DNA of 55,892 nt from an uncultured Vampirovibrionales bacterium (GCA_964506805.1 CAZDMD010000001.1:1-55892); one strand, 5' to 3'. Shown: positions 2,348-41,644, counted from the stretch's first letter. Numbers and translations: made by a program. Notes: generated by a model from the letters alone, not told the origin.

Positions 2348-3881
2348 TGGTTATTCCTCCACTGACTTGAACCTTGGCTAGGTTGGCTTTGATACGGTCG
2401 TTTAGCTGGGCTTCTTCCTGCATTTGTGCCATCAATTCGGCTTGCAAGCTGTTAAAGCGTTCTTCAAAATTAAAATCATCCTCGATGTCTTCCAAGCCTA
2501 CATACCGCCCTGGGGTTAGCACATAATCTCGTTCAGCAACTTCGGTAATGGTGGAAGATTTGCAAAAGCCTTTAATATCTTCGTAGCTGTTTCCTTCGCT
2601 TCGCCAATTATGATAAGTTTGTGCAATTCGTTGAATGTCTTCGTCGCTTAGCTCACGGGTGCGGCGGTTAATCAAGTGTCCAAGGTTTCGAGCATCGATA
2701 AAGAGCACTTCGTCTTGTCTATAGCTTTTGCCTCGGCGTAAAAACCACAACGAAGCAGGAATTTGCGTATTTAAAAAGAGTTTTGCGGGTAAATTGACAA
2801 CGCAATCCACCAAGCGAGCTTCGACCAAAGCCTTACGAATATCGCCTTCACCTGAAGATTTGGAAGTCAACGCCCCCTTTGCCATTACAAAGCCTGCAAG
2901 CCCGCCTGTTGGCTTCAGGTGATACAAGAAATGCTGAATCCAAGCATAGTTGGCGTTCCCACTGGGGGGCGTGCCAAACTGCCACCGTCCATCTGAACGC
3001 AATACATCCCCGCTCCAGTCGCTATCGTTAAAGGGTGGGTTGGCGATAATAAAATCCGCTTTTAAATCAGGGTGGGCATCCTTCAAAAATGACCCTTCAT
3101 TATTCCAACACACTTGGGAAGCATCAATCCCCCGAATGGCTAGGTTCATTTTGGCTAATCGCCATGTGGTTTGGTTGCTTTCTTGCCCGTAAATTGAAAT
3201 ATCCTGAATCCGCCCTTGATGCTCTTTTACAAAGGTTTCAGATTGAACAAACATCCCGCCTGAGCCACAGCAAGGGTCAAACACTCGCCCTTTATAGGGT
3301 TCTAGCATTTCTACCAATAACTGAACAACCGAACGGGGGGTGTAAAACTGCCCGCCTTTTTTACCTTCAGCTAAAGCAAATTCCCCTAAGAAGTATTCAA
3401 ACACTCGCCCTAATAAATCAGGGGTCGCTTTTTGAGCATGATTCACATCTAAATCACTAAATTTATCAATTAACCCGCCTAAATTAACAGGATCAATGTT
3501 CCCTTGAGCAAACACTTTCGGCAAAACGCCCTTCAAAGAAGGGTTCTCTCGTTCGATAACATCCATTGCTTCATCAATATATTTGCCGATGTTTGGATGT
3601 TTGGCATTACTCTTTAAAAAACCCCACCGTGCAGAAGGAGGCACAAAAAAGACGTTTTCTCCACTGTATTCGTCTTTATCTTCAGGGTCTGCTCCTGCAA
3701 GCTCCCCTTCGCCTGCTTTTAGTTCTTCATAACGCACCTCAAACGCATCTGAAATATATTTGAGAAAAATCAAGCCTAATACCACATACTTATATTGAGC
3801 GGCATCAATGTTTTTTCGTAAAGAATCGGCGGCTTCCCACAGTTTTTTTTCCATTGCGTTGTTTTCAATGATTTGTGCCAT
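2340..3881 (-). CDS. hsdM: Type I restriction-modification N6-adenine DNA methyltransferase HsdM
   Basis: N-terminal HsdM helical domain (LWEAADSLRKNIDAAQYKYVVLGLIFLKYISD), motif I VFDPCCGSGGMFV, motif IV IIANPPFN. Confidence 0.92.
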   Translation of the reverse strand: MAQIIENNAMEKKLWEAADSLRKNIDAAQYKYVVLGLIFLKYISDAFEVRYEELKAGEGELAGADPEDKDEYSGENVFFVPPSARWGFLKSNAKHPNIGKYIDEAMDVIERENPSLKGVLPKVFAQGNIDPVNLGGLIDKFSDLDVNHAQKATPDLLGRVFEYFLGEFALAEGKKGGQFYTPRSVVQLLVEMLEPYKGRVFDPCCGSGGMFVQSETFVKEHQGRIQDISIYGQESNQTTWRLAKMNLAIRGIDASQVCWNNEGSFLKDAHPDLKADFIIANPPFNDSDWSGDVLRSDGRWQFGTPPSGNANYAWIQHFLYHLKPTGGLAGFVMAKGALTSKSSGEGDIRKALVEARLVDCVVNLPAKLFLNTQIPASLWFLRRGKSYRQDEVLFIDARNLGHLINRRTRELSDEDIQRIAQTYHNWRSEGNSYEDIKGFCKSSTITEVAERDYVLTPGRYVGLEDIEDDFNFEERFNSLQAELMAQMQEEAQLNDRIKANLAKVQVSGGITNE

Positions 3882-4203: not shown

Positions 4204-6030
4204 ATGACACAAGCCATCGTTACCAATACAGATTATATTCAAGTGGGACAAAATCAAGGCATTATCAAGCTCCACACCGAAGGCGATCGAGAAAAAATCA
4301 CCTATCACGCCAAAGAAAGCAAAACCTACCACTACAAAGACCCCGAAGAAAAAGTAAGAGCCTCCTATTTCTGCGAGCTGGTGATGCTCTACGGATACGA
4401 CGCTAAGGACATTTCCCTTGAAGTTACCATGCCAGCACGCACCCCCAGCAACTTGGCGGATATTGTACTGTACACCAAAGACGGACACCCCTATTTAGTG
4501 GTAGAATGCAAGAAGGACAAAATCACCGATTCCGAGTTTAATCAAGCCGTCGAACAAGCCTTCGGCAACGCCAATAGTCTGCGAGCCAAGTTTACCGCCG
4601 TAGTGGCAGGCAATACACGTTCGTTTTATAACGTGGCGGATTATTCAGGAGCCGAGCGTGTTCATAACATTTTGGCGGATATTCCCAAGCATTACGGCAA
4701 GCCCCCCAAGTACAAGTTTAGTAAAGGCAACTTAGAGCCTAAAATCGTGAGCCGTGAAGAACTCATCGCCTCCCTTGAAAAATGCCACGACACCATTTGG
4801 CAAGGAGGCAAAGTCGCCCCCACCGTTGCCTTTGATGAAGTTTCGAAATTGTTGTTTTGTAAGCTGAAAGACGAAAAAGACACCAATTTTAAAGATGAAG
4901 TTTATAAGTTTCAAGTCGGTACGAATGAAACGCCTGAAAAAGTCGCCCAACGCATTAAGGAAATCTACATCGAAGCCAAAAAGCAAGATGCCGAAGTCTT
5001 TCAAGGCGATATACAGCTAGATGATGCCATTATTTTTCAAGTCGTGGAACACATTCAAGGGATTAACTTTGTCGGTACAGATTTAGACAGCAAGGGCGTT
5101 GCCTTTGAAAAGTTCTTAGGTGATTTTTTCAAGGGAAAAATGGGGCAGTACTTCACCCCACGAAAAGTGATTGAGTTTACCGTTAAAATGACGTTTGAAG
5201 CCATGGGGAAGGACATTCTTAAACGACCCAACAATTACAACGTGCTAGACCCTGCTTGTGGAAGCGGAGGCTTCTTGCTTTACGCCCTAGATGCCGTGCG
5301 AAAGTTCGCCGATACGAACTTTGACATAGGCTCTGCTCAATGGCATAAGCATTGGCACAGTTTCGCTGAAAAGAATTTGTACGGCATTGAAATTAACGAT
5401 CAAATCGCCCGAGTCTGTAAAATGAACATGATTATTCATGATGACGGACACACCAACGTCATTAGTCCCGACAAAACTCAAGGTTCATTAGGGAAAATGG
5501 CGGATATTACCCAGTATCACAAGGATTTTAAAGCCGATTACTTTGATATGGTACTCACCAACCCACCCTTTGGGGCGACCATTAAAGGCAGTGAAACAGG
5601 GGATTTATTGGAAAGCTACACACTAGGCAAAAGTAAGAAAAACCAAAAAACCGAGATTTTATTCATTGAACGGTGCATAGACTTCGTTAAACCGCAAGAC
5701 GGTTATTTAGCCCTTGTATTGCCCGACGGTATTTTAACCAACAGTAGCCTGCAATATGTGCGAGACTTCCTCATGGAACGATGCCAAATTTTGGCGGTGG
5801 TGTCGATTCCTCAATTTGCGTTTAGCCATTATGGGGCAGGCGTCAAATCAAGCGTGGTGTTTTTACGACGCAAAGGTGAAAATGAAACCTTAAAAGACTA
5901 CCCCATTTTTATGGCGATTGCCGAACGCATAGGCTACGACGCCACAGGTCGAGACGACGCCCACAACGACCTAGACGAGATATTTACGCAGTATTTGGCG
6001 TTTAAGGCGAACCCCGAAAATTTTATGTAA
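4204..6030 (+). CDS. Fusion of an HSDR_N-type PD-(D/E)xK domain with a gamma-class N6-adenine methyltransferase (BcgI-A-like / Type I-like M)
   Basis: N-terminus ADIVLYTKDGHPYLVVECKKD (D...ExK). Methylase motif I LDPACGSGGFL and motif IV VLTNPPFG. Confidence 0.85.
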   Translation: MTQAIVTNTDYIQVGQNQGIIKLHTEGDREKITYHAKESKTYHYKDPEEKVRASYFCELVMLYGYDAKDISLEVTMPARTPSNLADIVLYTKDGHPYLVVECKKDKITDSEFNQAVEQAFGNANSLRAKFTAVVAGNTRSFYNVADYSGAERVHNILADIPKHYGKPPKYKFSKGNLEPKIVSREELIASLEKCHDTIWQGGKVAPTVAFDEVSKLLFCKLKDEKDTNFKDEVYKFQVGTNETPEKVAQRIKEIYIEAKKQDAEVFQGDIQLDDAIIFQVVEHIQGINFVGTDLDSKGVAFEKFLGDFFKGKMGQYFTPRKVIEFTVKMTFEAMGKDILKRPNNYNVLDPACGSGGFLLYALDAVRKFADTNFDIGSAQWHKHWHSFAEKNLYGIEINDQIARVCKMNMIIHDDGHTNVISPDKTQGSLGKMADITQYHKDFKADYFDMVLTNPPFGATIKGSETGDLLESYTLGKSKKNQKTEILFIERCIDFVKPQDGYLALVLPDGILTNSSLQYVRDFLMERCQILAVVSIPQFAFSHYGAGVKSSVVFLRRKGENETLKDYPIFMAIAERIGYDATGRDDAHNDLDEIFTQYLAFKANPENFM

Positions 6031-6056
6031 GCCCTGATTGGGTAAACCGCATTTTT

Positions 6057-7430
6057 GTGGTCAATCAGGGCGAAATCGAAGGGCGTTTAGATGCGGATTT
6101 TTATTCAATCAATCTGTCTACAATAGCTTTGAAGACTAAGGATTTAGGAGAACTTATAGAATTTTCAAAAGAAACATGGAATCAAAAAGATTTATTTGAA
6201 AAAACATTCCCCTATATCGAAATTAGTGAAATTAACATCGAAACTGGATCACTTTCAGAAATAAAGGAAATTGAAATCAAAAACGCACCCAGCCGTGCTA
6301 AAATGCTTGTAAGAAATAATGATATTCTAGTTTCTACAACACGCCCAAATAGAGGAGCTATTGCTCATCTAAACTCATTAAATAGGGTTTCTGTCGCTTC
6401 AACTGGCTTTTCTATTTTGAGAGAAGTAATTGATGCTAGCATAAACAAATCTTTTCTTTTTCACATTTTGAGAAGTGATTTTTGTTTGTCGCAAATGTTA
6501 AAACATTCTAGCGGTGGTAATTATCCTGCAATTACACAAGAAGCCTTAAAGAAGATTCAAATCCCCGTCCCCCCAATGGAGGTGCAAGCCCACATCGTGG
6601 AGCTGATGCAAGACGCCCACGCCACCAAACAAAGCAAAGAAGCCGAAGCCACCGCCTTGCGTCAAAGTATTGACGGCTATGTGCTAGAACAACTCGGCAT
6701 TACCCTGCCCACCGTTGAAAAACGCTTGTGCTTTGGGGTGTCTAGTTCGCAGGTGCAAGGCTCTCGGTTGGATGGGGAGTATAATCAACAGCACAATCAG
6801 CATGTATCCCTCCAAAATCAAGAATACGAACCAGTCCCTCTTAAGCATTATTTAGATTTCTTTACTTCTGGTTCTCGTCCTAAAGGTGGAGTGTCTCAAT
6901 TTAGTGAAGGCATTCCAAGTATTGGAGGGGAGCATATTTTGGATACTGGAGAAATTGAAAGTACAAATCTAAAGTATATCCCTAAAGAATTTCATCAAAA
7001 AAATACAAAAAGTACCCTTTTTAAAAGGGATGTTTTGATTATTAAAGACGGAGCAACTACTGGTAAAGTAGGGATTTTACAAGAGGATTATCCTTACGAA
7101 GAAGTTAATATCAACGAACACGTTTTTTTATTGCGTGTTAAACCTGCATATAACCCTTATTTCTTGTTTAGTTTTTTAAGAACAGGTTTCGGACAAAATC
7201 AGCTCAAAAAAGAAATATCAGGTGGTACGATTACAGGCATTACAAAAAATGTTTTTGATGTTGTCCAAATCCCCCTCCCACCCCGACCGCTACAGGATGC
7301 GATCGCCGAAGAAGTCCAAGCCCGCTTGGCTCGTGCCAAGCAACTTGAAAGCGAAGCCAAGCTCGCCCTTGCCTCCGCCAAAGCCGAAGTCGAACGTCTG
7401 CTGTTTGGGGAAGCTAACCCCTCACCTTAA
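6057..7430 (+). CDS. Restriction-modification specificity (S) subunit, two TRDs, GTG start
   Basis: Two conserved S-subunit spacer helices: IQIPVPPMEVQAHIVELMQDAH... and VQIPLPPRPLQDAIAEEVQARLARAKQLE... It starts 27 nt after the methylase stop. Confidence 0.85.
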   Translation: MVNQGEIEGRLDADFYSINLSTIALKTKDLGELIEFSKETWNQKDLFEKTFPYIEISEINIETGSLSEIKEIEIKNAPSRAKMLVRNNDILVSTTRPNRGAIAHLNSLNRVSVASTGFSILREVIDASINKSFLFHILRSDFCLSQMLKHSSGGNYPAITQEALKKIQIPVPPMEVQAHIVELMQDAHATKQSKEAEATALRQSIDGYVLEQLGITLPTVEKRLCFGVSSSQVQGSRLDGEYNQQHNQHVSLQNQEYEPVPLKHYLDFFTSGSRPKGGVSQFSEGIPSIGGEHILDTGEIESTNLKYIPKEFHQKNTKSTLFKRDVLIIKDGATTGKVGILQEDYPYEEVNINEHVFLLRVKPAYNPYFLFSFLRTGFGQNQLKKEISGGTITGITKNVFDVVQIPLPPRPLQDAIAEEVQARLARAKQLESEAKLALASAKAEVERLLFGEANPSP

Positions 7431-7499
7431 ACACGGCGTTTCTTGAGCGTAAATCCTGCAAAGCCTTACTATGACTGGTTCTTCATAAAAAATGGTGGA
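7431..7499 (+). repeat. att-like direct repeat, distal copy, ending in tggtgga (complement of the tRNA-Ala 3' end TCCACCA)
   Basis: Ungapped alignment to 49804-49872: I count 59 of 69 identical positions. The shared block includes ccttactatgactggttctt and the terminal tggtgga. Confidence 0.7.
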
Positions 7500-7595
7500 A
7501 CATTGTAGACAAGTTCCGAACCTACTGTAGAGAAAACGGCGAGTGGTTGTCAATACTTTTAAAGCAAGTCGCCTAAAAAAACAGGAGTCCTTACC

Positions 7596-8186
7596 ATGCA
7601 AAAAGATGCCCTTGAAAAAGCGAAAGCCGATCTCGCTTCCCTTGACGAAGCGAGGAAAGCCAAGTTTAAACGCCTCGAACGGAACCACTTGGAACCCGTC
7701 AAGCTCAAGGTCGGGGAAGGAGGAAATATCGAGCTGAAGAATCCAAAAGCCAACATTGTGGATCATTACATTCAACTACTTGAAACCATTGGCGTGGCGG
7801 ATGATGATGTGCATCACTATGTGCTTACTCAACTGGTTGCGATTATGGGGGAAGACAACATGAATGCAGGGCTTGCCCTTTTAAGAGGTATCGCTCCACA
7901 AGATAGCACCGAAACCATGCTGGCATCTCAACTGGTGTGTGTGAATCATCTTGCGATAACGATGATGCGTCGTAGTCTAAATGAAAAATTACCTGCTGGT
8001 CATGTGGAATCCTTAATCAATCGTAGCACCAAGCTATTAAAGACTTTTACGACCCTAAACGATAGCTTGGTGAAGTATCGTAATCAAGGTAAGCAAGTGA
8101 TTCAAGTGCAACATTTTAATGTGGAAAATCACGGGCAAGCGATGATTGGCAATATCGGGGGAGGGGGAGTCCATGCGAAAACATGA
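7596..8186 (+). CDS. Hypothetical 196-aa protein
   Basis: Long ORF with no recognisable motif. It overlaps the next ORF by 14 nt. Confidence 0.5.
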   Translation: MQKDALEKAKADLASLDEARKAKFKRLERNHLEPVKLKVGEGGNIELKNPKANIVDHYIQLLETIGVADDDVHHYVLTQLVAIMGEDNMNAGLALLRGIAPQDSTETMLASQLVCVNHLAITMMRRSLNEKLPAGHVESLINRSTKLLKTFTTLNDSLVKYRNQGKQVIQVQHFNVENHGQAMIGNIGGGGVHAKT

Positions 8187-8460
8187 AGATCTACCCCTTG
8201 TCCAAACACTTCACCCTTTTAAGCAATGTGGAGCTACCAGTAAAAGAAGCGGTTTACCATGTGTGCAACCTGCGATGAAGAACGGTCGTTGTCGTTTTCA
8301 TGGGGGTAAATCTACAGGAGCAAAAACAGTGGAAGGTAAGCAAGCCCAAAGGCAAGGCAACTTCAAGCATGGCTATTATTCAATTGAGGCTAAACACGAA
8401 CGCCTGCAAGCCACGCTCTTGATGCAAGGTATCCACGAGGCAGTGGAGTTCAGTCCATAG
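8173..8460 (+). CDS. Small Cys-rich HGGxSTG-motif protein
   Basis: CGATSKRSGLPCVQPAMKNGRCRFHGGKSTGAKT. I chose ATG 8173 (MRKHEDL), in frame with the track ORF 8146-8460. Confidence 0.55.
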   Translation: MRKHEDLPLVQTLHPFKQCGATSKRSGLPCVQPAMKNGRCRFHGGKSTGAKTVEGKQAQRQGNFKHGYYSIEAKHERLQATLLMQGIHEAVEFSP

Positions 8461-8547
8461 TCTTGACAAATAAGGCGACATCGTTAATAATGAAGTTGAT
8501 AAGACCTCCCAAGGCTAGGCTTCGGCTCCTCAAACGGGGAGGTTACT

Positions 8548-9519
8548 TTGCTTTTAGGGGTTATAATGTCTGCTAAACAAAAATTCAATAAGCCTCCTCT
8601 TGAATATCAAAAGCAATTAGAAAAGCTTAAACAAAGAGGTATGAGTTTTCAAAATGAAACAGAAGCTATGCACTTGTTAGAGCATGTGAATTATTTTCGC
8701 TTTACCCCCTACTGGATACCCTTTCAAAAAGATGCTTCAAAACATTTATTTCATGAAGGAACCTGTTTTGAACAAATTCAAGCCCTTTACCAATTTGACA
8801 CAAAATTACGTCAACTTCTTTTTGAAGCGATTGAAAAAATAGAAGTATCTATACGTGCTAAATGGGCGTATGAAATTTCTCTAAGGCATGGCGCACATGC
8901 TCATTTACATCTTAAGTTCTTTGTAAGTTCTTCAAAGTACCAAAAAGATTTAAAAGATTTATACAAGGCGATTGATCAAGCTAAAGACAAAGAAGAGTTT
9001 GTGAAACATTATCTCAATAAATATGAAGAGTCTATGCCTCCTATATGGGTGGTGTCGGAAGTTATTTCGCTAGGTTTGCTTTCGAAGCTTTACACCAACT
9101 TAGATGATATAGGGGTGTCGGGATTCAATACGTCTGCTAAAAAAGCTATTGCTGGAGCCTATCAGATTGATTTCGAATTTTTGGAATCATGGCTTCATGT
9201 GTTGACTCAAGTGAGAAACTTTTCAGCACATCATGCACGATTATGGAATCGAGAGTTTAAAAGAACGCCTAAGCTTGTTATAAACAAGCCTAGTGCTTTA
9301 AAGGGTCAATTCGTGCAAGGCTCACGTAGGCTTTACAATGTTCTTGTGTTGATGCTTTATCTGATGGATCAAATTGATAGCAACAGTAGTTTTAGAAAAC
9401 GCCTCAAAACTCTATTGCTTTCAGAACATGGTTACTTGCCTCAAATGGGATTCCCTAGTGATTGGCAGAACAAAACAATATGGCATTTCAAAACTTCTAC
9501 GATGAAAGTCAATCTATAA
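8548..9519 (+). CDS. Abi_2 (AbiD/AbiF-like) abortive-infection family protein
   Basis: HVNYFRFTPYWIPF near the N-terminus and VRNFSAHHARLWNREF later, as in Abi_2/AbiD-F proteins. TTG start 8548 follows ggagg; the alternative ATG is at 8566. Confidence 0.8.
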   Translation: MLLGVIMSAKQKFNKPPLEYQKQLEKLKQRGMSFQNETEAMHLLEHVNYFRFTPYWIPFQKDASKHLFHEGTCFEQIQALYQFDTKLRQLLFEAIEKIEVSIRAKWAYEISLRHGAHAHLHLKFFVSSSKYQKDLKDLYKAIDQAKDKEEFVKHYLNKYEESMPPIWVVSEVISLGLLSKLYTNLDDIGVSGFNTSAKKAIAGAYQIDFEFLESWLHVLTQVRNFSAHHARLWNREFKRTPKLVINKPSALKGQFVQGSRRLYNVLVLMLYLMDQIDSNSSFRKRLKTLLLSEHGYLPQMGFPSDWQNKTIWHFKTSTMKVNL

Positions 9520-9563
9520 ATTGACAAGATATAGCATTTTGTCAATTTATAGGTTGATTTTTT
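9518..9563 (+). terminator. Hairpin plus T-run immediately after the Abi gene
   Basis: aaattgacaa (9518-9527) pairs with ttgtcaattt (9539-9548), followed by gattttttg. Confidence 0.45.
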
Positions 9564-9810
9564 GAATCGGTAGCTTTTACCCAAAACTTCCCATTGACGG
9601 ATGCGTGAACTTTGCCAACATAAGGTTTACACTATATTTCCAAATTGTTTTTACCTCACCCCTCCCCCTATGGCGAAACCTGCGAAAGTTTAGATTCTGA
9701 TTTCACCCAATCACGCCGTGCCAAACTGGTGAGGGCAATGGAGGACTTATCTTCTAACAGCCATAGCTGGTACTGCAGATACAACCCCACCGCTTCCAGA
9801 CGCCTGCCCC

Positions 9811-12800
9811 CTAACTTACGACAAAGCCCGACTCATACGCCCCACGAGGCATGGCAAACGTGGGATCAATCACCAGTACGTCGTCGTAGGTGAGTTGGTA
9901 AAGTTGGTAGACCAACACATCGATTTCGGCTTCAACTTCTTTCAACTGGAAAAGGATGTCTTCTTCAACGTGTAAGCCCTCAAATTGTTGATGCTTTAAA
10001 GCAACGGCTTTATCAAACAAAGATTGAAACTGAATCAATTGTTCTTTTGAAGGAATGATAATGGGCAACTGTCTCGCATCATTTATTTGAAAATGGGAGG
10101 TATTATTTATAAAGTCCTGAACTAAATGGCTAATAAACCTTGAGTTTATAAGAAAAACAAAATATGAGTTTGGTATTTCACACTGGCTAAATAAACTCAT
10201 ACTTAAAACATCATGGACAGATTCGCTTTTGATTCTTGCCTTTAAATATGTGCTATTCACATCTGTCCAGCAGAAACCTGATTTAAAGTAAAATTGAGGA
10301 TTCCGAACAACTGGCATTCCTTCCCCCTTTTTACCTGAATTGTTTTTAAGAAAAGCGACATTGGTTTTAGTCCACGCAATACAAAAAGGGGTTTCTAAAT
10401 ACCAGCGGTTTCCGTCTTTATCCCCTTTGTCATAAGGTACGTAGTACGGTTTTGTTTCTTCAATACCCTTCGTTTTTTCCTCTTCGCTTAGGGTTTCAAC
10501 ATTCGCTATTTCGGTTTCTTCAATCAACTTGTATAAATAACCTTGTCCAAAAATATCCCTTCCATAGCGTTCCTTTAAGTCGTCAAATAATTGGGCTATT
10601 TCTGCTTCATTTAAGTCCGCTAGGTGTAATTTAACCGATTCAAGACTTGTTAAATGTTTGAGTTCGGAAATGTTTGACTTCTTAATCGCTTCTAACAATT
10701 TTTTAGGTCGGCTTTCTACAATGTTGATTGCCCATTTGGTGCTTTTACGCACCGCCACATATTTGCCGTTACTACCTGTTTGTAAGCCTACCCCTCCGTC
10801 AGTTAAGCAACCTAGCAAGGTTACATCGCCTGCCTTTAAACTATCTCGGTAAGGTTGTAGTAAACGTTGGCTTTGACTGATTTGTTTACTGGTTGAAATG
10901 GCTAGCCAGTATTTTTCATGTAATTTTTTTAAGTGATCATTATATCGAGCATAAAAACTTCTATTAGCTTGATGCGGAAAGAAAAAGACTTGATGTATAG
11001 CCTTTCTAAACATCTCGATTTCAACCATTTCTTCCTTAGGTTTATTAAAATCATTAACGGCATCTTTAAAAATAAAACTATAGTTTTCTTTCATAGGCTC
11101 TTTGTTGAAAATTGCAATGGCAGGTGAAACCATTGCATTTTCAAACACATTACTGGTTTTAATCAACTCAACCAGTCTATTTTTTTGCAACAATTCACGG
11201 ATATTTTTCTTTGAGTTGATTGACAAGTAAGTGTCAGAAGTGATATAAGCTAAAGTGCCTTTTGGCTTTAAAATAGCTTCACCTTGAGTAAAAAAGTAAT
11301 TGTATAAATCGTCCGAAATCCCATAGACTTGTTTATACTTTTTCTTTTGTGCTTCAGTCGTACCTTTGTTGGAAACATAAGGAGGATTACCAATTACCAC
11401 ATCAAAGCCATTTTTCTTAAAAACAGTATGAAAAAATAATTTAAAATCAAACTTTTCATAGACGTTCATTTTCTCGGCTTCATCAAAAATATACTTTAAG
11501 TTCTCTTCAATCTCTCTTTTCATAACCTCTTTTTTATCAATGTCTGTACATGAAAATAATTTTTCTTGTAATTTATTTAATCTTTCCTTTCGTTCTAAAG
11601 AAATTGGAACACCGTCTAACCCCACAAGGGAATCTCCAGCCATTAGCTTATAGTCCATGTTGGGTAGGGGGTTAATGCGCAGGTTGGCTTCTAGTTCTTG
11701 ATCCACCACCAAGGCGAGCCAAAAGCGTAGCTTGGCAATTTCAATGGCGCCTGCGTCAATATCCACGCCGTAAATGCAATTTTCAATCGCATGGCGTTTT
11801 AGTTCGTAGGGGGTACGTTTAGGCGAAGGTGGCAAGTGTTCGGTTAAGGCTATTCTCGCTCGCACCAGCTCGTGTAGCATCCCCACGGGGAAGGCTCCTG
11901 AACCAATGGCAGGGTCGCACACGGTAATGGTGGCAAGGGCATCATCGAGGGCGGGGGCGTGGGTTTTAATGCTTTGGGGTAGGGCATCTTCTTTTTCGTG
12001 CTTCTTTTTATAATTGCCCCCTGCCAATTCCACAAAGGTGCGTAGGTCTTCCAAGGGGGTGGCTTCCACTTGGGTGTGCAGGTATTGAATCAGACTTTCT
12101 TGGCACATATAATGCACGATTTCTCGGGGGGTGTAGAAGGCTCCCTTGCTTTTGCGGTCTTTGACTTCCAGCAATTCTTCAAACACTTTGCCGAGCATTT
12201 CAGGGTCGACGGCGACTTCTTTTTCAAGCGGTTCGTCTTCTTTTACCGTAAAATTGTAAAGATTAAACGTGTCAAAAATCTCTTTAAATATCGCATTGTC
12301 AATGGTGATGTCTGTATCACCCCACTTGTACTCTTGCAACGGTTCAAACAGTCCCCCATTCAAAAAGGGAATACGACATTGAGTTGTCTCAAACCATGCC
12401 TCTTTACCTCTGTCAGTATTCAGAGCTTCGTAAAACAGGGGTTCGACAATCTCATTAAAAAAGTTGTCATACGGCTTGTATTTTCGTTCAAAAAGATTTT
12501 GCAGGAAGTTTTTATCACCCGTTCCCCATGCTTGCCCCTTCGCCACCCCGAGCCATCCTTTTTTTTGCAGAAACTGTAAAAACACCAGTTGCCCGAGCGT
12601 CTTTTTCGCAAAGTCGGCTAGGTGAATGTGGTGTTTGTCAAAGTCGGCTTTAATTTTAGCATCCGTGAATTGCAGGCGTTCGAGTTCTTCGTACAAGGCT
12701 TCGTATAGTTTTTTGTACTTTTCAAAGAACTCTTTAGAAACTTTTTCAACACTAAAGGCTTCTTGCAAATCTTCAAGGGTTATAACGGAATTACGCTTAG

Positions 12801-13350
12801 TTGATTTATCTAAACAGGTTAATAATCTTTCTGTTGCAGTGTGGATGCCTTCATTTTTGCCCACTAAAAATGAATGTCGTTTGGCTTGGCTTTTGGCTTT
12901 AAAGTTGATGTTTTTCTTTTTGACTTCATCAAATCGAGTTAGATAATCCAACGTTACAAGGGAAAGTCGCCACTGCTCCAAATCGTCGTCATGTACAAAA
13001 GCAACTAAGGCTCCATCTCGTAATTTACCACCTCGTCCACCTTCTAAATACCACGCCACAAAATCCCTTTGGTTCACTTTGAGTTCTTTTACTGAATGTC
13101 TATTCTGCAAATGAACAACAAGAACATCGATGATTACTTCTCTTGCGTTAGTGTCTTCATACACATATTGATGAATACGTTGATATTTTTTTACAAGTTT
13201 TCTAAATTGAAACTCTATAACATTACCTTTTAACTCCCCTGTTGGATTTGGGTTATCTGTGGGGAGTAGGTTCCGAACAAAGGCTTCAAAATGCTTCGGG
13301 TCAAAACGATTTTTCAATAATTGAGTAAGATCTTCTTTATTAGACATCAT
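9811..13350 (-). CDS. Large Eco57I/type IIG-like N6-adenine DNA methyltransferase with a C-terminal target-recognition region
   Basis: Helical linker LVFLQFLQKKGWLG, FYTPREIV, motif I VCDPAIGSGAFPV, motif IV VIGNPPYV, then about 500 aa of TRD-like sequence. It starts 3 nt after the stop of the helicase gene. Confidence 0.85.
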   Translation of the reverse strand: MMSNKEDLTQLLKNRFDPKHFEAFVRNLLPTDNPNPTGELKGNVIEFQFRKLVKKYQRIHQYVYEDTNAREVIIDVLVVHLQNRHSVKELKVNQRDFVAWYLEGGRGGKLRDGALVAFVHDDDLEQWRLSLVTLDYLTRFDEVKKKNINFKAKSQAKRHSFLVGKNEGIHTATERLLTCLDKSTKRNSVITLEDLQEAFSVEKVSKEFFEKYKKLYEALYEELERLQFTDAKIKADFDKHHIHLADFAKKTLGQLVFLQFLQKKGWLGVAKGQAWGTGDKNFLQNLFERKYKPYDNFFNEIVEPLFYEALNTDRGKEAWFETTQCRIPFLNGGLFEPLQEYKWGDTDITIDNAIFKEIFDTFNLYNFTVKEDEPLEKEVAVDPEMLGKVFEELLEVKDRKSKGAFYTPREIVHYMCQESLIQYLHTQVEATPLEDLRTFVELAGGNYKKKHEKEDALPQSIKTHAPALDDALATITVCDPAIGSGAFPVGMLHELVRARIALTEHLPPSPKRTPYELKRHAIENCIYGVDIDAGAIEIAKLRFWLALVVDQELEANLRINPLPNMDYKLMAGDSLVGLDGVPISLERKERLNKLQEKLFSCTDIDKKEVMKREIEENLKYIFDEAEKMNVYEKFDFKLFFHTVFKKNGFDVVIGNPPYVSNKGTTEAQKKKYKQVYGISDDLYNYFFTQGEAILKPKGTLAYITSDTYLSINSKKNIRELLQKNRLVELIKTSNVFENAMVSPAIAIFNKEPMKENYSFIFKDAVNDFNKPKEEMVEIEMFRKAIHQVFFFPHQANRSFYARYNDHLKKLHEKYWLAISTSKQISQSQRLLQPYRDSLKAGDVTLLGCLTDGGVGLQTGSNGKYVAVRKSTKWAINIVESRPKKLLEAIKKSNISELKHLTSLESVKLHLADLNEAEIAQLFDDLKERYGRDIFGQGYLYKLIEETEIANVETLSEEEKTKGIEETKPYYVPYDKGDKDGNRWYLETPFCIAWTKTNVAFLKNNSGKKGEGMPVVRNPQFYFKSGFCWTDVNSTYLKARIKSESVHDVLSMSLFSQCEIPNSYFVFLINSRFISHLVQDFINNTSHFQINDARQLPIIIPSKEQLIQFQSLFDKAVALKHQQFEGLHVEEDILFQLKEVEAEIDVLVYQLYQLTYDDVLVIDPTFAMPRGAYESGFVVS

Positions 13351-13353
13351 GGG

Positions 13354-16300
13354 TTAGGCATCCTTTTTTGGGGGGATTAAGGCATTAGAAAGAATCACTT
13401 GACGTGGGGCATCTTCCCAGTTACTTTGGTTATTTTTTCCTTTGGGTAGCGGAATCACGTTCATCAAGTGGTGATAGGCTTGAAGGTTGTCTTGCGTCCG
13501 TTCGAGGGCTTCTCTCATTTTTTTAAGTATCGCTGGTGCGTAGCCGTCTTCTTGCACATGTTTTAGCACAATACCCAAGGTGTGGCGTTGTTCATCCACC
13601 AGCTTGGGGTCATTCAGTAAGGCTCTTAAAAATTCATATACTTTTTTGGCAGTGCCTGTTAGCTTCGCATGGCGTTCATGGTTTTCGGCTTCAAGCTCTT
13701 CAGCGGTGTAGTAGTGTTCTTTGTTTGCTTCAAGCATGGGGTGATACTGTGAAGGTCGTTTTTGCTTGGGCGTGCCTTCGGGGCAGTCAAAATAACGCAC
13801 GGCTTCAGCAAAATCGAGCTCTTGGCTTTGCTTGTTGTGGTGGATCACAAACTTTTTATGCCTGCCTTCTTTAAACAGGGTGATTAACGCCTCTTCTTCA
13901 AGCCCTTCAAACGTTCGGGCGGAATAGCATTTTTTAGGGAGCTTTTGTATTCGTTCCCAGCGTGGGGTGTCTTCATCTCGAATACGGCGAATCAATTTAA
14001 GGTATTTTAATTCAGCGTTTGGATCCTCTTCTCCTTCTTGATAGGTGTCCGTATCGTTTAGTTTTGTAAACAAGCCATGCGACGTAAACTCTTCATTTTC
14101 TGAAAGGTATTGAGCATCTTCACCGAGTGCATTATGAAAGGCTTGAATCTTGGCGGTGATGCTTTCTTCAAGGCTTAGGTGTTCGTTCGTTTTAGCCGTT
14201 GGGAAGATGTTGAAAATATGAATATCGCTAAAGGTAGACCCGACACGATTCACCCGTCCCACACGTTGCAAGACTTTAGTGGGGTTCCATGGTAAATCGT
14301 AATTGATGATGATGTTGGATCGGTGCAAGTTGACTCCTTCAGCTAGTACATCGGTGGTGACTAAAATTTGAATGTCATTTTTCTGATAATGCTTGTCGCA
14401 ATTAGGGTCATAATTGGCTTCTATGATTTCACGTCCTTTTTTGCCGTCTTGGCTAGAATAGGACATCACACTTTCACCAAACGCCTCTTTCAACGCTTTT
14501 GTTAAGTCTTCGCCTGTTTCCTTGGATTCGGTGAAAATGAGGAGCTTTTTATTTTTAAGCGTTGAATTCGTTTGAAGTTCCTTGACAAAAGCTTCTTTTT
14601 TGAAGTCGGTTTTTATTTCTTTCCATTGCGATTGAAGGCTCTTCAATAAAGCCAAATCGCCTTCAAGGTCGATCATGAGTATATCTTTGAATTCTTCAAT
14701 TTTATGATGTTTGACTTTCGCATTCTCATCATGTGCATTAACAAACTTAAACAGCTCTTCTTCATTGTCGGCATCAAGGTAATCATAGACATCTATTTTT
14801 TTACTGATAAAAACCTCACCCTTTTTACACATGGCAATAAACTTTTCATAGGATTCAATCATGCGTGCTAGGGTTTTTTCAAAGGCGTACTTACTACTTT
14901 CTAAGCGTTTGACCATACGGCTTTTAATGAATCCCTTCATGTTAATCTCTGGTGCGTCACTGCGATCTGGTTTGTCTATGAGATACAAAAGCGGTGCATA
15001 ACGTGAATAAGTTAATTCTTTAATCGTGTGGATGCTTTTTTCTAAAACGGTATTAGTGGGGTCATCAAACTTATAAATAATTCGTTGCGGTGTTGAAACT
15101 GTTGGAAAATGAAGCCCTTGTTCTTTGATGTCTTCAGCATACTCAGTGATAATATCTTGACGAGTGCGTCGTTCCATAACATGTGTCAGCAATTTTGAGC
15201 GAACTTGTCGAGACGCTTCTTTAACCTGCTTTAGATAGGCATCTGAATCTTTACCCTCTTGTTCTTCAATATGTTTAATATCGCTTTTGAGTTTATTGAA
15301 AAAACCTTTTAGATTTTTAGCATCTTTAAAATCGCTTTTCAAAGGGTTCTGAAATAGAGTTAGCAAAGGATAGAAATCATAAAACGTATTGTTTAAAGGT
15401 GTTGCAGTTACAAGAATAACTTTCTTCCCTTCACAAATCGTTTTTAAATGGGCATATCGTTGTGAACTTTCGGTTCTGAAGCGGTGTGCTTCATCTACGA
15501 TAATGAGATCATAAGGGTTTGTTTTTTTTACGAGACTAGGCAGTTGCCCTGCTGATTCTACTTCATAACTAGAGACATGAAAATCCCTAAAAACGTTTTT
15601 CCAACTTTCAACCACTGGCGGGGGAGCCAGTACTAGAATCTTTCCCTGAAAACTTTGGGCAAACAGTGCCGTAATATAGGTTTTGCCTAAACCCACTACA
15701 TCTGAAATGAAAACACCATTGTACTTCTCTATTTTGTCCCGAATACGTCCAATCACATCTGTTTGATATTTTAGTTTTTTAAAATTAGAGGGTACTTTAA
15801 TATCAGAGTCACGGTCAAAATTCACTTCTTCGCCAAAGTATTCCAATAACGATTTTAAAAATAGATCATAAGGCAAAATATCATCCTTCAACCATGTCTT
15901 GTTTTGAACCGTGTCAACGTAATCTTCTGATACATCAATCGCTTTTTCCCATAAGGCATTAAAACGTTCTTCTGCATAACGAACATCGGCACTATTTTTT
16001 AGTTCTACATTAAACTCATATTGATCTTTCAAACCTGATTCAGAAAAATTGCTAGAACCTGTAATGACACTGCCATAATCCCTGTCGTCTTTAGAATAGC
16101 GTTTAATATAAAGCTTGGCATGGATGTCTTGACTTGGGTAAGCCCGTATTTCAAGTCTTCCTGCTTGAAGAAATGAAATAAACTGCTTAATACCACGTTC
16201 TACATCAAAAGAATCTTCTGAATTATCCATTTCAGTAACAAGTGCTTCAGCAAAGGATTCTTTTGTTTTTTTATGACTTTCATAATCAAGTTTTTGTTGG

Positions 16301-16533
16301 CGTGTTTGTTTGAAAGCTTTCACAACCGATGCGTTAGTATTAATACCCACAAGGATTCTTATTTTTTCAACTTGTTGAAGCTCTTCTTCTATTAAATAAA
16401 AACCACTACTTCTAAAATATCCAACCAAAACATCAAAAAATTGCACCGATTTCAAAGTTACTTTAAAGCGGTCTAACAGGGTTTGACCTTCTTCATTTGT
16501 AAAAAACGTTAAATCGGTGTGCTTTGTCATCAT
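13354..16533 (-). CDS. Fusion of an N-terminal PLD (HKD) nuclease-like domain with an SNF2/DEAH helicase
   Basis: HKD motif IHAKLYIKRY...GSSNFSESGL. Helicase motif I DVVGLGKTY, II IIVDEAHRFR, III LVTATPLNN, VI QRVGRVNRVG. Confidence 0.88.
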   Translation of the reverse strand: MMTKHTDLTFFTNEEGQTLLDRFKVTLKSVQFFDVLVGYFRSSGFYLIEEELQQVEKIRILVGINTNASVVKAFKQTRQQKLDYESHKKTKESFAEALVTEMDNSEDSFDVERGIKQFISFLQAGRLEIRAYPSQDIHAKLYIKRYSKDDRDYGSVITGSSNFSESGLKDQYEFNVELKNSADVRYAEERFNALWEKAIDVSEDYVDTVQNKTWLKDDILPYDLFLKSLLEYFGEEVNFDRDSDIKVPSNFKKLKYQTDVIGRIRDKIEKYNGVFISDVVGLGKTYITALFAQSFQGKILVLAPPPVVESWKNVFRDFHVSSYEVESAGQLPSLVKKTNPYDLIIVDEAHRFRTESSQRYAHLKTICEGKKVILVTATPLNNTFYDFYPLLTLFQNPLKSDFKDAKNLKGFFNKLKSDIKHIEEQEGKDSDAYLKQVKEASRQVRSKLLTHVMERRTRQDIITEYAEDIKEQGLHFPTVSTPQRIIYKFDDPTNTVLEKSIHTIKELTYSRYAPLLYLIDKPDRSDAPEINMKGFIKSRMVKRLESSKYAFEKTLARMIESYEKFIAMCKKGEVFISKKIDVYDYLDADNEEELFKFVNAHDENAKVKHHKIEEFKDILMIDLEGDLALLKSLQSQWKEIKTDFKKEAFVKELQTNSTLKNKKLLIFTESKETGEDLTKALKEAFGESVMSYSSQDGKKGREIIEANYDPNCDKHYQKNDIQILVTTDVLAEGVNLHRSNIIINYDLPWNPTKVLQRVGRVNRVGSTFSDIHIFNIFPTAKTNEHLSLEESITAKIQAFHNALGEDAQYLSENEEFTSHGLFTKLNDTDTYQEGEEDPNAELKYLKLIRRIRDEDTPRWERIQKLPKKCYSARTFEGLEEEALITLFKEGRHKKFVIHHNKQSQELDFAEAVRYFDCPEGTPKQKRPSQYHPMLEANKEHYYTAEELEAENHERHAKLTGTAKKVYEFLRALLNDPKLVDEQRHTLGIVLKHVQEDGYAPAILKKMREALERTQDNLQAYHHLMNVIPLPKGKNNQSNWEDAPRQVILSNALIPPKKDA

Positions 16534-16564
16534 CTTAAACTTTCATGTGATTTAAAAAATAGGC

Positions 16565-17281
16565 CTATTGGGCTATAATATCACACGCAAGCTCTAAAGG
16601 AAAAATCCATGAAACAAGCTGTTTATGGTTCATAGAAACTTTCTTCGCATGTTCTAATCCATGCTTCAACTCTTCAACTTCACAAGGATTTGAACTTAAA
16701 CGAGTATTTTTAATCTGCACTGTACCTGTTTCAGGATTTCTACGATATTCCGTACTTACTATAATATCAGAAACAGCGAGATTTATCATTTTCAAAAATT
16801 CGTTCATTTCGATGTAAAACAAACCTTCGTTTTTTGTTTTGTCTGAATTAAATAAAAAACCTGTAAAGATAAGACTTTCATTAATAGGATTGTCCGTCAC
16901 AACTGGGTCTAAGGTTATCTGAAAAATGAATGAGTGTCTTAACTGGTCACAAATAAAAGAAGCCTTTCGTCGTTCTTTATGTGTTTTGTCTGCATGGTAG
17001 AACTCATCCCATCGATGATGATTCATAATGTCTATTTTGCCTGATCCTTCTATGGATTTACGAGGTAACTTTTCTAAGGAAAATTGTTCTTTTTTAAACT
17101 CATCCGAAAGCTTGGTTTCCCAATTTAAAAGTTTATTGATGATATGTGCGACAAAAAAAACATCAAACTCCAAGTCAAAATAAGAAGACTCATAATTATG
17201 TGATGGTTGGGTGGATTTTTCAAGTATGTCTTTTGCTAAAGAATCTAACTTTACCTTATAGTAACTAGACTCATGCATCAT
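16565..17281 (-). CDS. Hypothetical 238-aa protein, first gene of the helicase/methylase operon
   Basis: ORF ending 31 nt before the helicase start on the same strand. I recognise no motif. Confidence 0.55.
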   Translation of the reverse strand: MMHESSYYKVKLDSLAKDILEKSTQPSHNYESSYFDLEFDVFFVAHIINKLLNWETKLSDEFKKEQFSLEKLPRKSIEGSGKIDIMNHHRWDEFYHADKTHKERRKASFICDQLRHSFIFQITLDPVVTDNPINESLIFTGFLFNSDKTKNEGLFYIEMNEFLKMINLAVSDIIVSTEYRRNPETGTVQIKNTRLSSNPCEVEELKHGLEHAKKVSMNHKQLVSWIFPLELACDIIAQ

Positions 17282-17292
17282 AAGATCCCCAA

Positions 17293-17313
17293 GGTTCTAA
17301 AAAATGGTGGAGG
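17293..17313 (+). repeat. Third, short remnant of the att repeat / tRNA-Ala 3' end
   Basis: ggttctaaaaaatggtggagg matches ggttctt..aaaaatggtgga at 7477-7499. tggtggagg matches the first 9 nt of the tRNA complement at 49866-49874. Confidence 0.5.
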
Positions 17314-17348
17314 ATAAAACTGATAGTATTCTAGCCATACAAGAATAA

Positions 17349-17516
17349 CAGGGAATTTACAGGGAAAATACTCAAAAAAATAGCGATTATTCGTCAGAAC
17401 ACTTGATTCAGAATACTTGAAATAGGGTGTAGAGAAGGATTTTAAAAAGCACGCTTCTAAAATTACCCTGAATTTTTCAAAAAAGAACAGGGAATATTTT
17501 AGACGAATCAGGGATT
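17349..17516. promoter_or_regulatory. Cluster of five CAGGGAAT-like iteron-type repeats (four direct, one inverted)
   Basis: cagggaat 17349-56, cagggaaa 17360-67, inverted attcaggg at 17466-73, cagggaat 17488-95, cagggatt 17509-16. All lie in a 430-nt ORF-free region next to the att remnant. Confidence 0.4.
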
Positions 17517-17718
17517 TTTCTCCAAAAACAACTTTTAATACCCCTATAGACTCGTATAATCAGGCTCGTATGCCATTGAATAAGGACGCCATGTCGCTAA
17601 AACGCTGCTATAAGCACGAAAGTTAAGCCCCTTTCGCTTACGAATATGACGCGAGACTTGCTTTTTTTATCCGTATAGAACAAGTTACTCTAGAGTTTTT
17701 TTCTTTTAGCATGGTAAA

Positions 17719-18189
17719 ATGAACTCGTACTCTGTAAGCCAAGCCTTAAATGATACCCCTCAAATGAAATTAGATATTTTTCGTCAAGAAGATTTAGAAG
17801 AATTGATCCCGCTTCCCTTGTTTTTAAACAAGGTGCCTGCTGGTTTTCCTTCACCTGCTGAAGACTACATTGAACAAAAGCTCAATGTTCAAGAACTGTT
17901 GGTTAAACGTCCTGCTTCCACTTTCTTTATTCGGGTGAGTGGTTATTCCATGCTTGATGCAGGCATTCACGACGGCGATATTCTTGTGGTAGATCGTTCC
18001 CTTAAAGCCTCAACCCATAAAATCATCGTGGCTGTTTTAGACGGTGAACTTACGATTAAACGCTTTGAACAATCAGAAAATACCATTTATCTTCACCCCG
18101 AAAATAGTGAGTATCAAACCATTACCATCACCCCTGATATGGATTTTGAGGTGTGGGGCGTCGTGACCAATGTCATTCATGCGGTTTGA
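17719..18189 (+). CDS. umuD: UmuD, LexA-like S24 peptidase subunit of translesion polymerase V
   Basis: FIRVSGYSMLDAGIHDGDILVVDRSL and ...IVAVLDGELTIKR (Ser/Lys dyad context). Its stop overlaps the umuC start. Confidence 0.9.
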   Translation: MNSYSVSQALNDTPQMKLDIFRQEDLEELIPLPLFLNKVPAGFPSPAEDYIEQKLNVQELLVKRPASTFFIRVSGYSMLDAGIHDGDILVVDRSLKASTHKIIVAVLDGELTIKRFEQSENTIYLHPENSEYQTITITPDMDFEVWGVVTNVIHAV

Positions 18190-19478
18190 TGATGAAAGCC
18201 CCTAAAAGTTCTCACGTTTTTGCCGTGGTTGATTGTAATAATTTTTTCGTGAGTTGTGAACGAGTCTTCCAGCCTCATCTCAATAAGCGTCCTGTTGTGG
18301 TGCTTTCTAACAATGACGGTTGTGCCATTTCACGTTCCAACGAAGCCAAAGCCCTTGGCATTAAAATGGGTGAACCCTTTTTTAAGTTTCAACACCTTGT
18401 CAAAGCTCATAATGTAGCAGTATTCTCTTCAAATTTCCCCCTTTATAGTGATTTAAGTCAACGGATTATGTCTATTCTTCAGGAAGATGTTCCTTCTGTT
18501 GAAATGTATTCGATTGATGAGGCTTTTTTAGATCTTTCCCATATTCCTAGTGAACATCGTACCCAATGGATGCTTGATTTAAAGGCGAAGATTTATCAAT
18601 GGGTCGGCGTTCCCGTTTCCATTGGGTGTGCCGAAACCAAGACGCTCGCCAAAGTAGCGGTGCATTATGCGAAGAAGTCTCCCAAAACGAAAGGCGTTTT
18701 AGATTTGACACACTCGGATTTTCAGAATGAGGCTCTAAAACGTTTGCCCATTGAAGAGATATGGGGTGTGGGAAGAAAAACCGCTCAGAAATGTCGAAGT
18801 AAAGCCATTCAAAATGCGTATGATTTTAAAGGCTTACAGACATCTGAAGTTCTAAAATTAGGATCGAGCGTCCTTGCACGAACGCATCAGGAACTGCACG
18901 GGGTATTGTGTTTTTTATTGGAAGACGCCCCCGATGATCGAAAAAACATGGCGTTTACCCGTTCTTTTGGAACCCCTGTTGAAAGTAAAGAAGATTTACA
19001 CCAAGTCTTTAGTGAATACGCAGGACGGCTCGGGCATAAATTGAGGAAGCATCAGCTCGAAGCGGTGGGGCTTTATGCGTTTATCCGTAGTAATCCGTTT
19101 GATGATTATCGTCCTTACGTTTACCACAGTCAAAACATTAGTTTTATAGAAGCGACCAATAGTACCCCTGATTTAATGAAGGCGTCTCATGCCATGCTTG
19201 AAAAGATGTATCGTGAAGGCGTGCAATATAAAAAAGCGGGGTTAATTGCGTTGGGGTTACAACCCGCTCACTTGCATCAAAGAAGTTTATTTGAAAAGCC
19301 TTTAAGAGAGAAGGAAGACGCCTTGATGAAGACTTTAGACCGTGTTCAAAACCGATTTGGTAGATCCAGTTTGCAATATGCGTCGGCAGGCATTCAAAAG
19401 GCATGGTGGATGAAGCAGAACAAGCGATCCTCTGATTTTACGATGCACTGGGGGAGTCTCCTCACGATTGAAATTTGA
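18189..19478 (+). CDS. umuC: UmuC, Y-family DNA polymerase V catalytic subunit
   Basis: FAVVDCNNFFVSCERVF, VVVLSNNDGC, YSIDEAFLDL. I chose ATG 18189 (TGATG overlap with umuD); the track ORF begins at 18153. Confidence 0.9.
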   Translation: MMKAPKSSHVFAVVDCNNFFVSCERVFQPHLNKRPVVVLSNNDGCAISRSNEAKALGIKMGEPFFKFQHLVKAHNVAVFSSNFPLYSDLSQRIMSILQEDVPSVEMYSIDEAFLDLSHIPSEHRTQWMLDLKAKIYQWVGVPVSIGCAETKTLAKVAVHYAKKSPKTKGVLDLTHSDFQNEALKRLPIEEIWGVGRKTAQKCRSKAIQNAYDFKGLQTSEVLKLGSSVLARTHQELHGVLCFLLEDAPDDRKNMAFTRSFGTPVESKEDLHQVFSEYAGRLGHKLRKHQLEAVGLYAFIRSNPFDDYRPYVYHSQNISFIEATNSTPDLMKASHAMLEKMYREGVQYKKAGLIALGLQPAHLHQRSLFEKPLREKEDALMKTLDRVQNRFGRSSLQYASAGIQKAWWMKQNKRSSDFTMHWGSLLTIEI

Positions 19479-31918: not shown

Positions 31919-31929
31919 ATTCCTTACTC

Positions 31930-34449: not shown

Positions 34450-34457
34450 AGTGTATA

Positions 34458-38021: not shown

Positions 38022-38068
38022 TGTTTATTCCTTCGCTTTTCTCTTTAGGTTACCACGTTTTCTTTGAG

Positions 38069-41635: not shown

Positions 41636-41644
41636 CTTCTTTAT

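Follow-up and report, generated by a model that had tools for sequence, protein, structure and literature searches.

A stretch of 55,892 nucleotides (nt) from an uncultured Vampirovibrionales bacterium (GCA_964506805.1 CAZDMD010000001.1:1-55892; hereafter the window) contains a conserved two-gene cassette, in which a gene for a helicase–nuclease that joins a phospholipase D (PLD) domain of the HKD type to an SNF2 helicase is followed by a gene for an Eco57I/PglX-type N6-adenine (m6A) methylase with a variable specificity domain. Judged from its sequence, the locus is probably a self-contained, two-gene, ATP-dependent restriction–modification (R-M)-like system. An initial annotation of the window had grouped this pair with an upstream gene of 238 amino acids (aa) as a three-gene operon and had proposed an undescribed defence system; the comparisons below retain the pair and remove the third gene.

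The PLD-SNF2 helicase–nuclease and the methylase form a conserved cassette

The open reading frame (ORF) listing placed three minus-strand ORFs where the initial annotation had put them (Table 1), with gaps of 31 nt between the 238-aa ORF and the helicase gene and of 3 nt between the helicase and methylase genes. The motifs quoted there were also seen in the translations, namely HAKLYIKRY...GSSNFS, GLGKT, DEAH, TATPLNN and QRVGRVNRVG in the helicase and DPAIGSGAF and GNPPYV in the methylase.

The distribution of the helicase was evaluated by a scan of GTDB species representatives, which gave at least 555 confirmed loci; the best 80 were analysed. These 80 loci came from Gastranaerophilales, Nitrospirota, Bacteroidota, Chloroflexota, Firmicutes, Alphaproteobacteria, the candidate phyla radiation (CPR) and one Asgard archaeon. 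Directly downstream of the helicase gene, a methylase homologue lay on the same strand in 73 of these loci; of the seven that lack it, at least three end at a contig edge. In most of the genome loci, the helicase stop codon overlaps or adjoins the methylase start codon (-8 to +6 nt). A reciprocal scan of metagenomes, using the N-terminal 430 aa of the methylase as query, gave 80 loci, 74 of them with at least 600 nt of upstream sequence, and PLD-SNF2 was directly upstream of the methylase in 70 of these 74. The family is widespread and very large, and it had previously been noticed in passing.

Moreover, the two proteins diverged together, as the pairwise identities of the helicase co-varied with those of methylase residues 1-780 (r = 0.84, Mantel p ~0.001). 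Across 52 helicase–methylase pairs, HAK was kept in 51, GSSNF in 52, GLGKT in 52, DEAH in 51, NPPY in 52 and methylase motif I in 50. Linkage, co-divergence, motif conservation and domain content of the pair were each observed directly.

No third conserved gene flanking the pair was found within 3 kb in the 80 genome loci. The largest cluster of flanking genes, encoding ~200-aa recombinases, occurred at 7 loci (usable flanking sequence was available upstream in 66 loci and downstream in 47). About a dozen loci had one extra co-oriented gene between helicase and methylase, encoding Bro-N, ATPase_2, YhcG/DUF1016, RhuM-Fic, RhuM or Fic proteins (L014, L019, L027, L039, L054, L056, L064, L077 and L081) or, in L025, an IS200-like transposase. 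Classical R-M operons often host such hitchhiker genes.

Two side observations concern individual loci. Inverted fragments of the methylase C-terminus, which holds the target-recognition domain (TRD), were found beside ~200-aa recombinase genes directly downstream of the methylase in L029 (10364-11524) and L059 (7734-8852); this arrangement agrees with the phase-variable switching of specificity that Milman et al. 2023 (PMC9881135) report for such genes. In addition, the cassette was present in a metagenome-assembled genome of Promethearchaeota, an Asgard archaeon (L086, 3953-10848), with 42% identity in the helicase and 49% in the methylase, a copy that points to transfer between domains.

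The 238-aa gene lies outside the cassette

The proposed three-gene operon did not hold, because the 238-aa family was absent from all 160 related loci and because L091, the closest relative of the helicase gene (94% nt identity), differs upstream, where it has an unrelated 228-aa gene. By tblastn, neither the 80 genome loci nor the 80 metagenome loci contained a 238-aa homologue, and the hidden Markov model (HMM) of the family had no match among the 3749 ORFs of these 160 loci. The 238-aa gene is thus not conserved with the other two, an outcome named beforehand in the initial annotation as refuting its proposal. The same three-gene arrangement was seen in the ENA contig L090; across the trio region this contig and the window are 100% identical, and it probably derives from the same organism.

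The description of the 238-aa protein as having no recognisable motif was borne out, as no match was obtained in Pfam, PADLOC, NCBIfam or PHROGs. Its AlphaFold model (pLDDT, for predicted local distance difference test, 71) gave nothing below E 0.19 in Foldseek against PDB and BFVD, and searches of Pfam and PDB with a profile built from 50 family members likewise yielded no significant match. A word-indexed search with the protein returned only 8 close relatives. By an exhaustive profile search, its core was assigned to a sizeable family that lacks annotation and consists of stand-alone proteins of ~180-200 aa (E <= 0.001, 1182 representative clusters); S5, E38, L51, K57, H116 and S117 are invariant in it (motif C-N/D-Q-x-I/R-H-S-F). 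The homologues examined have other surroundings, namely an Abi_2 cluster and ksgA in L001, Fic or RND efflux genes in L006 and L007, and an element rich in integrase and toxin-antitoxin genes in L004; none adjoins a PLD-SNF2/methylase pair. These are mobile or defence contexts, and the 238-aa gene may represent a small defence or immunity gene in its own right.

A recombination junction upstream and a boundary downstream delimit the cassette

The cassette spans ~9803 to 16626-16706 on the minus strand and appears to have been recombined in beside the unrelated 238-aa gene, the ORF of which reads across the junction, because DNA homology to L091 and to the metagenome contig L001 ends at these points. 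The homology to L091 covers window positions 13347-16626, that is, the helicase gene and 93 nt upstream of it, and stops there; the 93 nt, into which the 238-aa ORF extends with its last 62 nt, are probably the cassette's own 5' untranslated region and/or promoter. The adjoining 80 nt (16627-16706) match neither L091 nor L001, and homology of the 238-aa gene region to L001 is limited to 16707-17309. At the other end, window positions 9713-9802 are 87% identical to L001, and this homology ends 9 nt before the methylase stop codon. The boundaries of the cassette are mapped in this way to within about 80 nt. Since the 238-aa ORF crosses the upstream junction, its residues 196-238 have no counterpart in homologues and a pLDDT <50. 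A promoter and terminator scan of 9400-17800 gave counts equal to chance expectation and was uninformative.

L001-type DNA is also present at window positions 7496-9692, which hold a 196-aa gene, a 104-aa gene and Abi_2. This module (window 7496-9802) shows 79% nt identity to L001 6571-9884, where its neighbours are a 238-aa homologue and a primase region of the P4-like Toprim/DUF3987 kind and the order differs from that of the window. The difference in order suggests module shuffling within a mobile island.

The PLD-SNF2 protein is predicted to be an ATP-driven motor with a working nuclease domain

The helicase gene product is predicted to be a true SNF2-family motor, because its best PDB matches are ISWI, the Sso Rad54-like protein, CHD1 and RapA. 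The ResIII Pfam match spans generic helicase motifs only. In the alignment of helicase homologues, H138, K140, G159-S-S-N162, G281-K284-T285, D347-E-A-H350 and Q756-R763 are invariant, and the HxK...GSxN signature of the HKD/PLD nuclease superfamily is present. The near-invariance of the HKD His and Lys and of GSSN argues for a working phosphodiesterase.

For the PLD domain, SauUSI (7CLG) was the only significant PDB sequence match, and the alignment of the helicase family profile to 7CLG is collinear, starting in the PLD domain and extending into the N-lobe of the helicase. In Nuc, BfiI, SauUSI and MtsD, a PLD active site takes two HKD motifs. Since the PLD domain of the window helicase has a single HxK motif (H138), giving one HKD per chain, a dimer would form a single active site.

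No modified-base reader domain was detected in the helicase by the Pfam scan. The best PADLOC model, 'C3a139 HKD+Snf2', stands for a cluster that occurs in the vicinity of Type III CRISPR loci. Thousands of full-length helicase homologues exist (~1066 aa, 45-51% identity), and tblastn against a plasmid collection, in which annotation is sparse, returned distant PLD-helicases only (<=36% identity).

The methylase has a variable C-terminus and a family-specific N-terminal domain

Comparison of homologues showed that methylase residues ~8-750 are kept and that the C-terminus is variable. Across the 52 pairs, mean pairwise identity was 24% for the C-terminus, compared with 49-50% for the rest, as expected of a target-recognition domain. 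The best PADLOC model was REase_MTase_IIG (E 9e-168), and its alignment takes in the N-terminus.

The N-terminal domain occupies the position where Type IIG enzymes such as MmeI have a PD-(D/E)xK nuclease. By eye, the initial annotation had seen no convincing D...ExK motif there, and the family alignments agree: no ExK is conserved, and E88-L-K90 of the window methylase aligns to variable or Arg positions. The residues that are invariant in this part of the family are R95, W127, R128, S130, R158, S160, G164, E167 and T171. Moreover, a profile search of the domain against PDB gave no sequence match, and a Pfam scan of 45 members gave no nuclease match, although a few of these members weakly matched the MmeI_hel spacer. 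A structure model of the N-terminal 430 aa (pLDDT 80) gave nothing better than E 0.02 in Foldseek and no nuclease fold.

Entries for YTH (m6A-reader) domains appeared in the same Foldseek output at E ~0.4-0.5, with probability <=0.16 and a template modelling (TM) score <0.3, which is not significant; reading of modified bases would nevertheless be of interest as another role for the N-terminal domain. The simplest reading, which we infer from linkage, is that the domain couples the methylase to the helicase–nuclease rather than acting as a nuclease itself, because PLD-SNF2 almost always accompanies methylases that have this domain.

Relation to known systems

The initial annotation had set the system apart from DISARM, BREX, Type ISP, Type I and Type III systems, and this separation was upheld for the pair, which also falls outside MANTIS/Gao_RL, ARMADA and the SauUSI-like Type IV enzymes. 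In the organisation of its parts, the pair is analogous to Type ISP enzymes split over two proteins, and related in minimal form to MANTIS, DISARM class 1 and ARMADA; in its workings it would come closest to a split Type ISP enzyme, or to MANTIS cut down to a methylase and an effector.

Type ISP enzymes (LlaGI and LlaBIII) combine a nuclease, a superfamily 2 (SF2) motor that translocates on double-stranded DNA, a gamma-class Eco57I-like m6A methylase and a C-terminal TRD. They recognise asymmetric sites and cleave on motor collision. In contrast to these single polypeptides, whose nuclease is of the Mrr/PD-(D/E)xK kind and whose helicase is Type I-like, the cassette comprises two ORFs, a PLD nuclease and an SNF2 motor. 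Type III systems also differ, as their Mod subunit is a beta-class methylase with an internal TRD and their Res subunit is an SF2 helicase with a PD-(D/E)xK nuclease; the cassette has an Eco57I-like methylase with a C-terminal TRD and a partner with an N-terminal PLD domain and an SNF2 motor.

In MANTIS (also Gao_RL or BREX-related type 2), MtsD is a dimeric PLD-SF2 effector with one active site, and phage restriction needs both MtsD and the MtsABC methylation/recognition complex (10.64898/2026.09.23.753747). The likeness lies in the fusion of an N-terminal HKD/PLD nuclease to an SF2/Swi2-Snf2 ATPase and in the dependence of the system on ATP. However, MANTIS needs the DUF499 AAA+ loader MtsA, MtsB (a small protein of the DUF3780/DUF3870 family) and a methylase of the DUF1156 type, and the cassette has none of the three; the methylase here is of the Eco57I/PglX type and has its own N-terminal domain. 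The NCBIfam model 'phospholipD_antiphage' (895 aa), which we take to be the Gao_RL/MtsD effector, scored 162 bits against the window helicase (cut-off 1100).

DISARM class 1 and ARMADA likewise have an SNF2/RapA-like helicase gene beside a PglX/Eco57I-like m6A methylase gene, and DISARM also has a PLD nuclease, although as a separate gene and not fused to the SNF2 protein. DrmA (a YprA-like helicase) and DrmB (DUF1998) are not in the window and are not conserved neighbours in the 80 genome loci. The NCBIfam model DISARM_DrmD scored 129 bits against a cut-off of 610, and the PADLOC matches to DrmD and DrmMI were partial. ARMADA comprises a BrxHII-like helicase, a PglX-like methylase and a YprA-like helicase; its YprA-like helicase is neither in the cassette nor a conserved neighbour in the same 80 loci. 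As for BREX, the methylase is not accompanied by BREX core genes: the unit contains no PglZ or BrxC, no conserved extra gene was found within 3 kb of homologues, and the window methylase reached 139 bits with the NCBIfam model BREX_1_MTaseX (PglX), the cut-off being 500.

SauUSI, a Type IV enzyme, is a dimeric nuclease that translocates in an ATP-dependent manner, with a collinear N-terminal PLD domain and SF2 helicase. Unlike the present helicase, for which a methylase is a near-obligate partner, SauUSI has its own TRD, targets modified cytosine and has no partner methylase. Type IIG enzymes (Eco57I, MmeI and Cj0031) share with the methylase the order of N-terminal domain, helical spacer, gamma-class methylase and TRD, as well as the PADLOC assignment. 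They differ in that the N-terminus here has no conserved PD-(D/E)xK motif and in the near-obligate linkage to PLD-SNF2.

Proposed mechanism and alternatives

The split arrangement suggested by the initial annotation, with specificity on one protein and the motor and PLD nuclease on the other, gave the best fit to the evidence. In the mechanism proposed here, the methylase–TRD protein would recognise a short, probably asymmetric site and N6-methylate adenine as a self mark. On unmethylated DNA, the site-bound methylase would recruit or license the PLD-SNF2 protein, probably via the family-specific N-terminal domain. The SNF2 motor would then hydrolyse ATP and translocate on double-stranded DNA, and the effector, acting as a dimer, would cut the DNA away from the site; restriction would probably depend on site number and orientation. 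Physical coupling, hemimethylation, translocation, cleavage geometry and ATPase activity are what we infer for the pair.

Several points weigh against this mechanism. For this family, methylation, ATPase activity, cleavage and protein–protein interaction are deduced from sequence. For the related MANTIS effector MtsD, DNA cleavage has not yet been shown in vitro (10.64898/2026.09.23.753747). The C-terminal ~200 aa of the helicase, which are uncharacterised, could be a DNA or modification reader. In addition, Foldseek was run on the whole 430-aa methylase model, and a single-domain match may have been missed. Finally, as Cj0031 (see below) restricts phage on its own, a cryptic nuclease within the methylase is possible.

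This last point leads to the alternative of a methylase that acts autonomously as a Type IIG enzyme through a divergent N-terminal nuclease, with PLD-SNF2 as an auxiliary or second-line effector. The REase_MTase_IIG match with its inclusion of the N-terminus, the MmeI-like position of that domain and the weak MmeI_hel matches in a few members all agree with it, as does Cj0031 of C. jejuni, which is cited as a homologue (PMC9881135) and restricts phage on its own, without a helicase partner (PMC4889913). However, no D/E...ExK motif is conserved, E88-L-K90 lies at non-conserved or Arg positions, and neither sequence nor structure searches returned a nuclease match. The predicted strand order, beta-beta-alpha-beta-beta-beta in our reading of the model, is also unlike the canonical PD-(D/E)xK core, and the near-obligate two-way linkage of abutting or overlapping genes is hard to square with an optional accessory. 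We therefore regard an autonomous Type IIG enzyme as unlikely.

A non-cleaving role, either BREX-like exclusion or an epigenetic switch in which the methylase is a phase-variable regulator and PLD-SNF2 remodels or blocks DNA, is quite improbable. The inverted TRD fragments and recombinase genes of L029 and L059 match the programmed inversions reported for such genes (PMC9881135), and the methylase domain is related to PglX, if below the NCBIfam cut-off. Against this stand the essentially invariant HKD His/Lys and GSSN residues and the defence-island context, and TRD shuffling is equally typical of true R-M systems. That the 238-aa protein is the essential third subunit of a three-component system is scarcely credible: the co-orientation, the 31-nt gap and the identical arrangement in L090, probably the same organism, would agree with it, but as a conserved system it is refuted by the lack of a homologue in all 160 related loci by both tblastn and family HMM. 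Moreover, the homologues of the protein lie beside Abi_2/ksgA, RND efflux genes, Fic or integrases and never beside the pair, the gene upstream in L091 is unrelated, and the junction falls inside the 3' end of the ORF, leaving a chimeric, low-confidence tail. The two-gene, ATP-dependent R-M-like system set out above is thus the reading that we favour.

Setting of the cassette in the window

The window is one long, dense defence island around the PLD-SNF2/methylase cassette, and the defence-island setting described in the initial annotation matches the gene content, which includes Type I R-M, Abi_2, Hhe, Avs2 and BREX-1 genes (Table 1). The Hhe/PDC-S37-like gene, Avs2 and the BREX-1 operon stand back to back. 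The operon has its own PglX, lies 12.6 kb from the cassette and is outside the cassette unit. The att remnant of the initial annotation was not supported, as the tRNA-Ala gene, the sole tRNA gene of the window, has no partial repeat elsewhere in the window.

The region 4204-7430 encodes a 608-aa HSDR_N_2 and N6_Mtase/Eco57I-like protein followed by a 457-aa protein with two Methylase_S domains. It looks like a fused nuclease–methylase with a separate specificity subunit, an R-M system distinct from the Type I hsdM/hsdS genes at 406-3881.

Table 1. Features of the cassette, its boundaries and its surroundings in the window (domain limits are approximate)
Feature	Position (nt)	Residues (aa)	Strand	Basis or remark
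PLD(HKD)-SNF2 helicase–nuclease, 1059 aa	13354..16533		-	Pfam, PADLOC, NCBIfam matches
HKD/PLD domain	15934-16395	47-200	-	Pfam PLDc_2/RE_NgoFVII
SNF2 N-lobe with GLGKT, DEAH		255-510		Pfam SNF2-rel_dom
Helicase C-lobe with QRVGRVNR		640-840		Pfam Helicase_C
Conserved C-terminal region of helicase		850-1059		No assigned function
Eco57I/PglX-type N6-adenine methylase with C-terminal specificity domain, 1179 aa	9811..13350		-	Pfam, PADLOC
Family-specific beta-rich N-terminal domain of methylase	12856-13350	1-165	-	
Helical spacer of methylase		170-370		
Gamma-class methylase with DPAIGSGAF, NPPY		380-800		Pfam Eco57I/N6_Mtase/MmeI_Mtase at aa 467-777
Variable TRD	9814-10950	800-1179	-	
93 nt 5' of PLD-SNF2 start, travelling with cassette	16534..16626		-	L091 DNA comparison; covers last 62 nt of 238-aa ORF
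Upstream recombination junction, end of L091 homology to start of L001 homology	16627..16706			Inside 3' end of 238-aa ORF
Downstream cassette boundary	9803..9810			L001-type DNA to 9802, methylase stop codon from 9811
238-aa ORF, adjoining but outside cassette	16565..17281		-	Residues 196-238 form a non-homologous chimeric tail; family proteins are about 185 aa
Type I hsdS/hsdM	406-3881			
HSDR_N-methylase and S subunit	4204-7430		+	
Abi_2	8548-9519			
umuDC	17719-19478			
Hhe/PDC-S37-like helicase, 1744 aa	19943-25177		+	DUF4011 and MTES_1575 nuclease
Avs2 STAND NTPase, 1499 aa	25277-29776		-	
Complete BREX type 1 operon (brxA, brxB, brxC, pglX, pglZ, brxL)	29888-42845		-	
tRNA-Ala	49866-49941			Sole tRNA of the window

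Discussion

The claim that the system is undescribed held in part. No name or experimental study for the pair was found in the searchable full-text literature, where the only mention of the pairing was a table entry in Milman et al. 2023 (PMC9881135); there, such genes are given as Cj0031 homologues with an adjacent PLD+SNF coding sequence, and programmed inversions are reported. That entry takes away part of the novelty, as do the match of the methylase to the PADLOC Type IIG model and the existing studies of related PLD-helicase effectors (SauUSI, and MtsD of MANTIS/Gao_RL). A specialist would see in the pair a modular recombination of familiar parts, useful and testable rather than surprising.

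For the window itself, the correction is that the cassette consists of two genes, not three. More broadly, the pair could be an unnamed, self-sufficient class of ATP-dependent R-M, with at least 555 loci among GTDB species representatives, in which a non-nuclease N-terminal domain couples site recognition to a dimeric PLD translocase; our confidence in this proposal is evenly divided. If it is true, the pair would form a minimal core of two genes, with DISARM class 1, ARMADA and MANTIS-like systems as elaborations of it, and many methylases annotated as 'Type IIG' would carry no nuclease of their own. PADLOC labels such methylases as fused Type IIG enzymes, and in pipelines that use models of this sort they would probably be counted as R-M systems of a single gene.

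If the two-gene model is right, the cassette would be among the commoner uncharacterised methylation-based defences and the simplest case of a PglX/Eco57I-type methylase directing a separate PLD-helicase nuclease. With two proteins and no AAA+ loader, it would offer a tractable model for questions shared with BREX, DISARM, ARMADA and MANTIS, such as how a hemimethylating methylase licenses an ATP-driven effector and whether restriction depends on site orientation.

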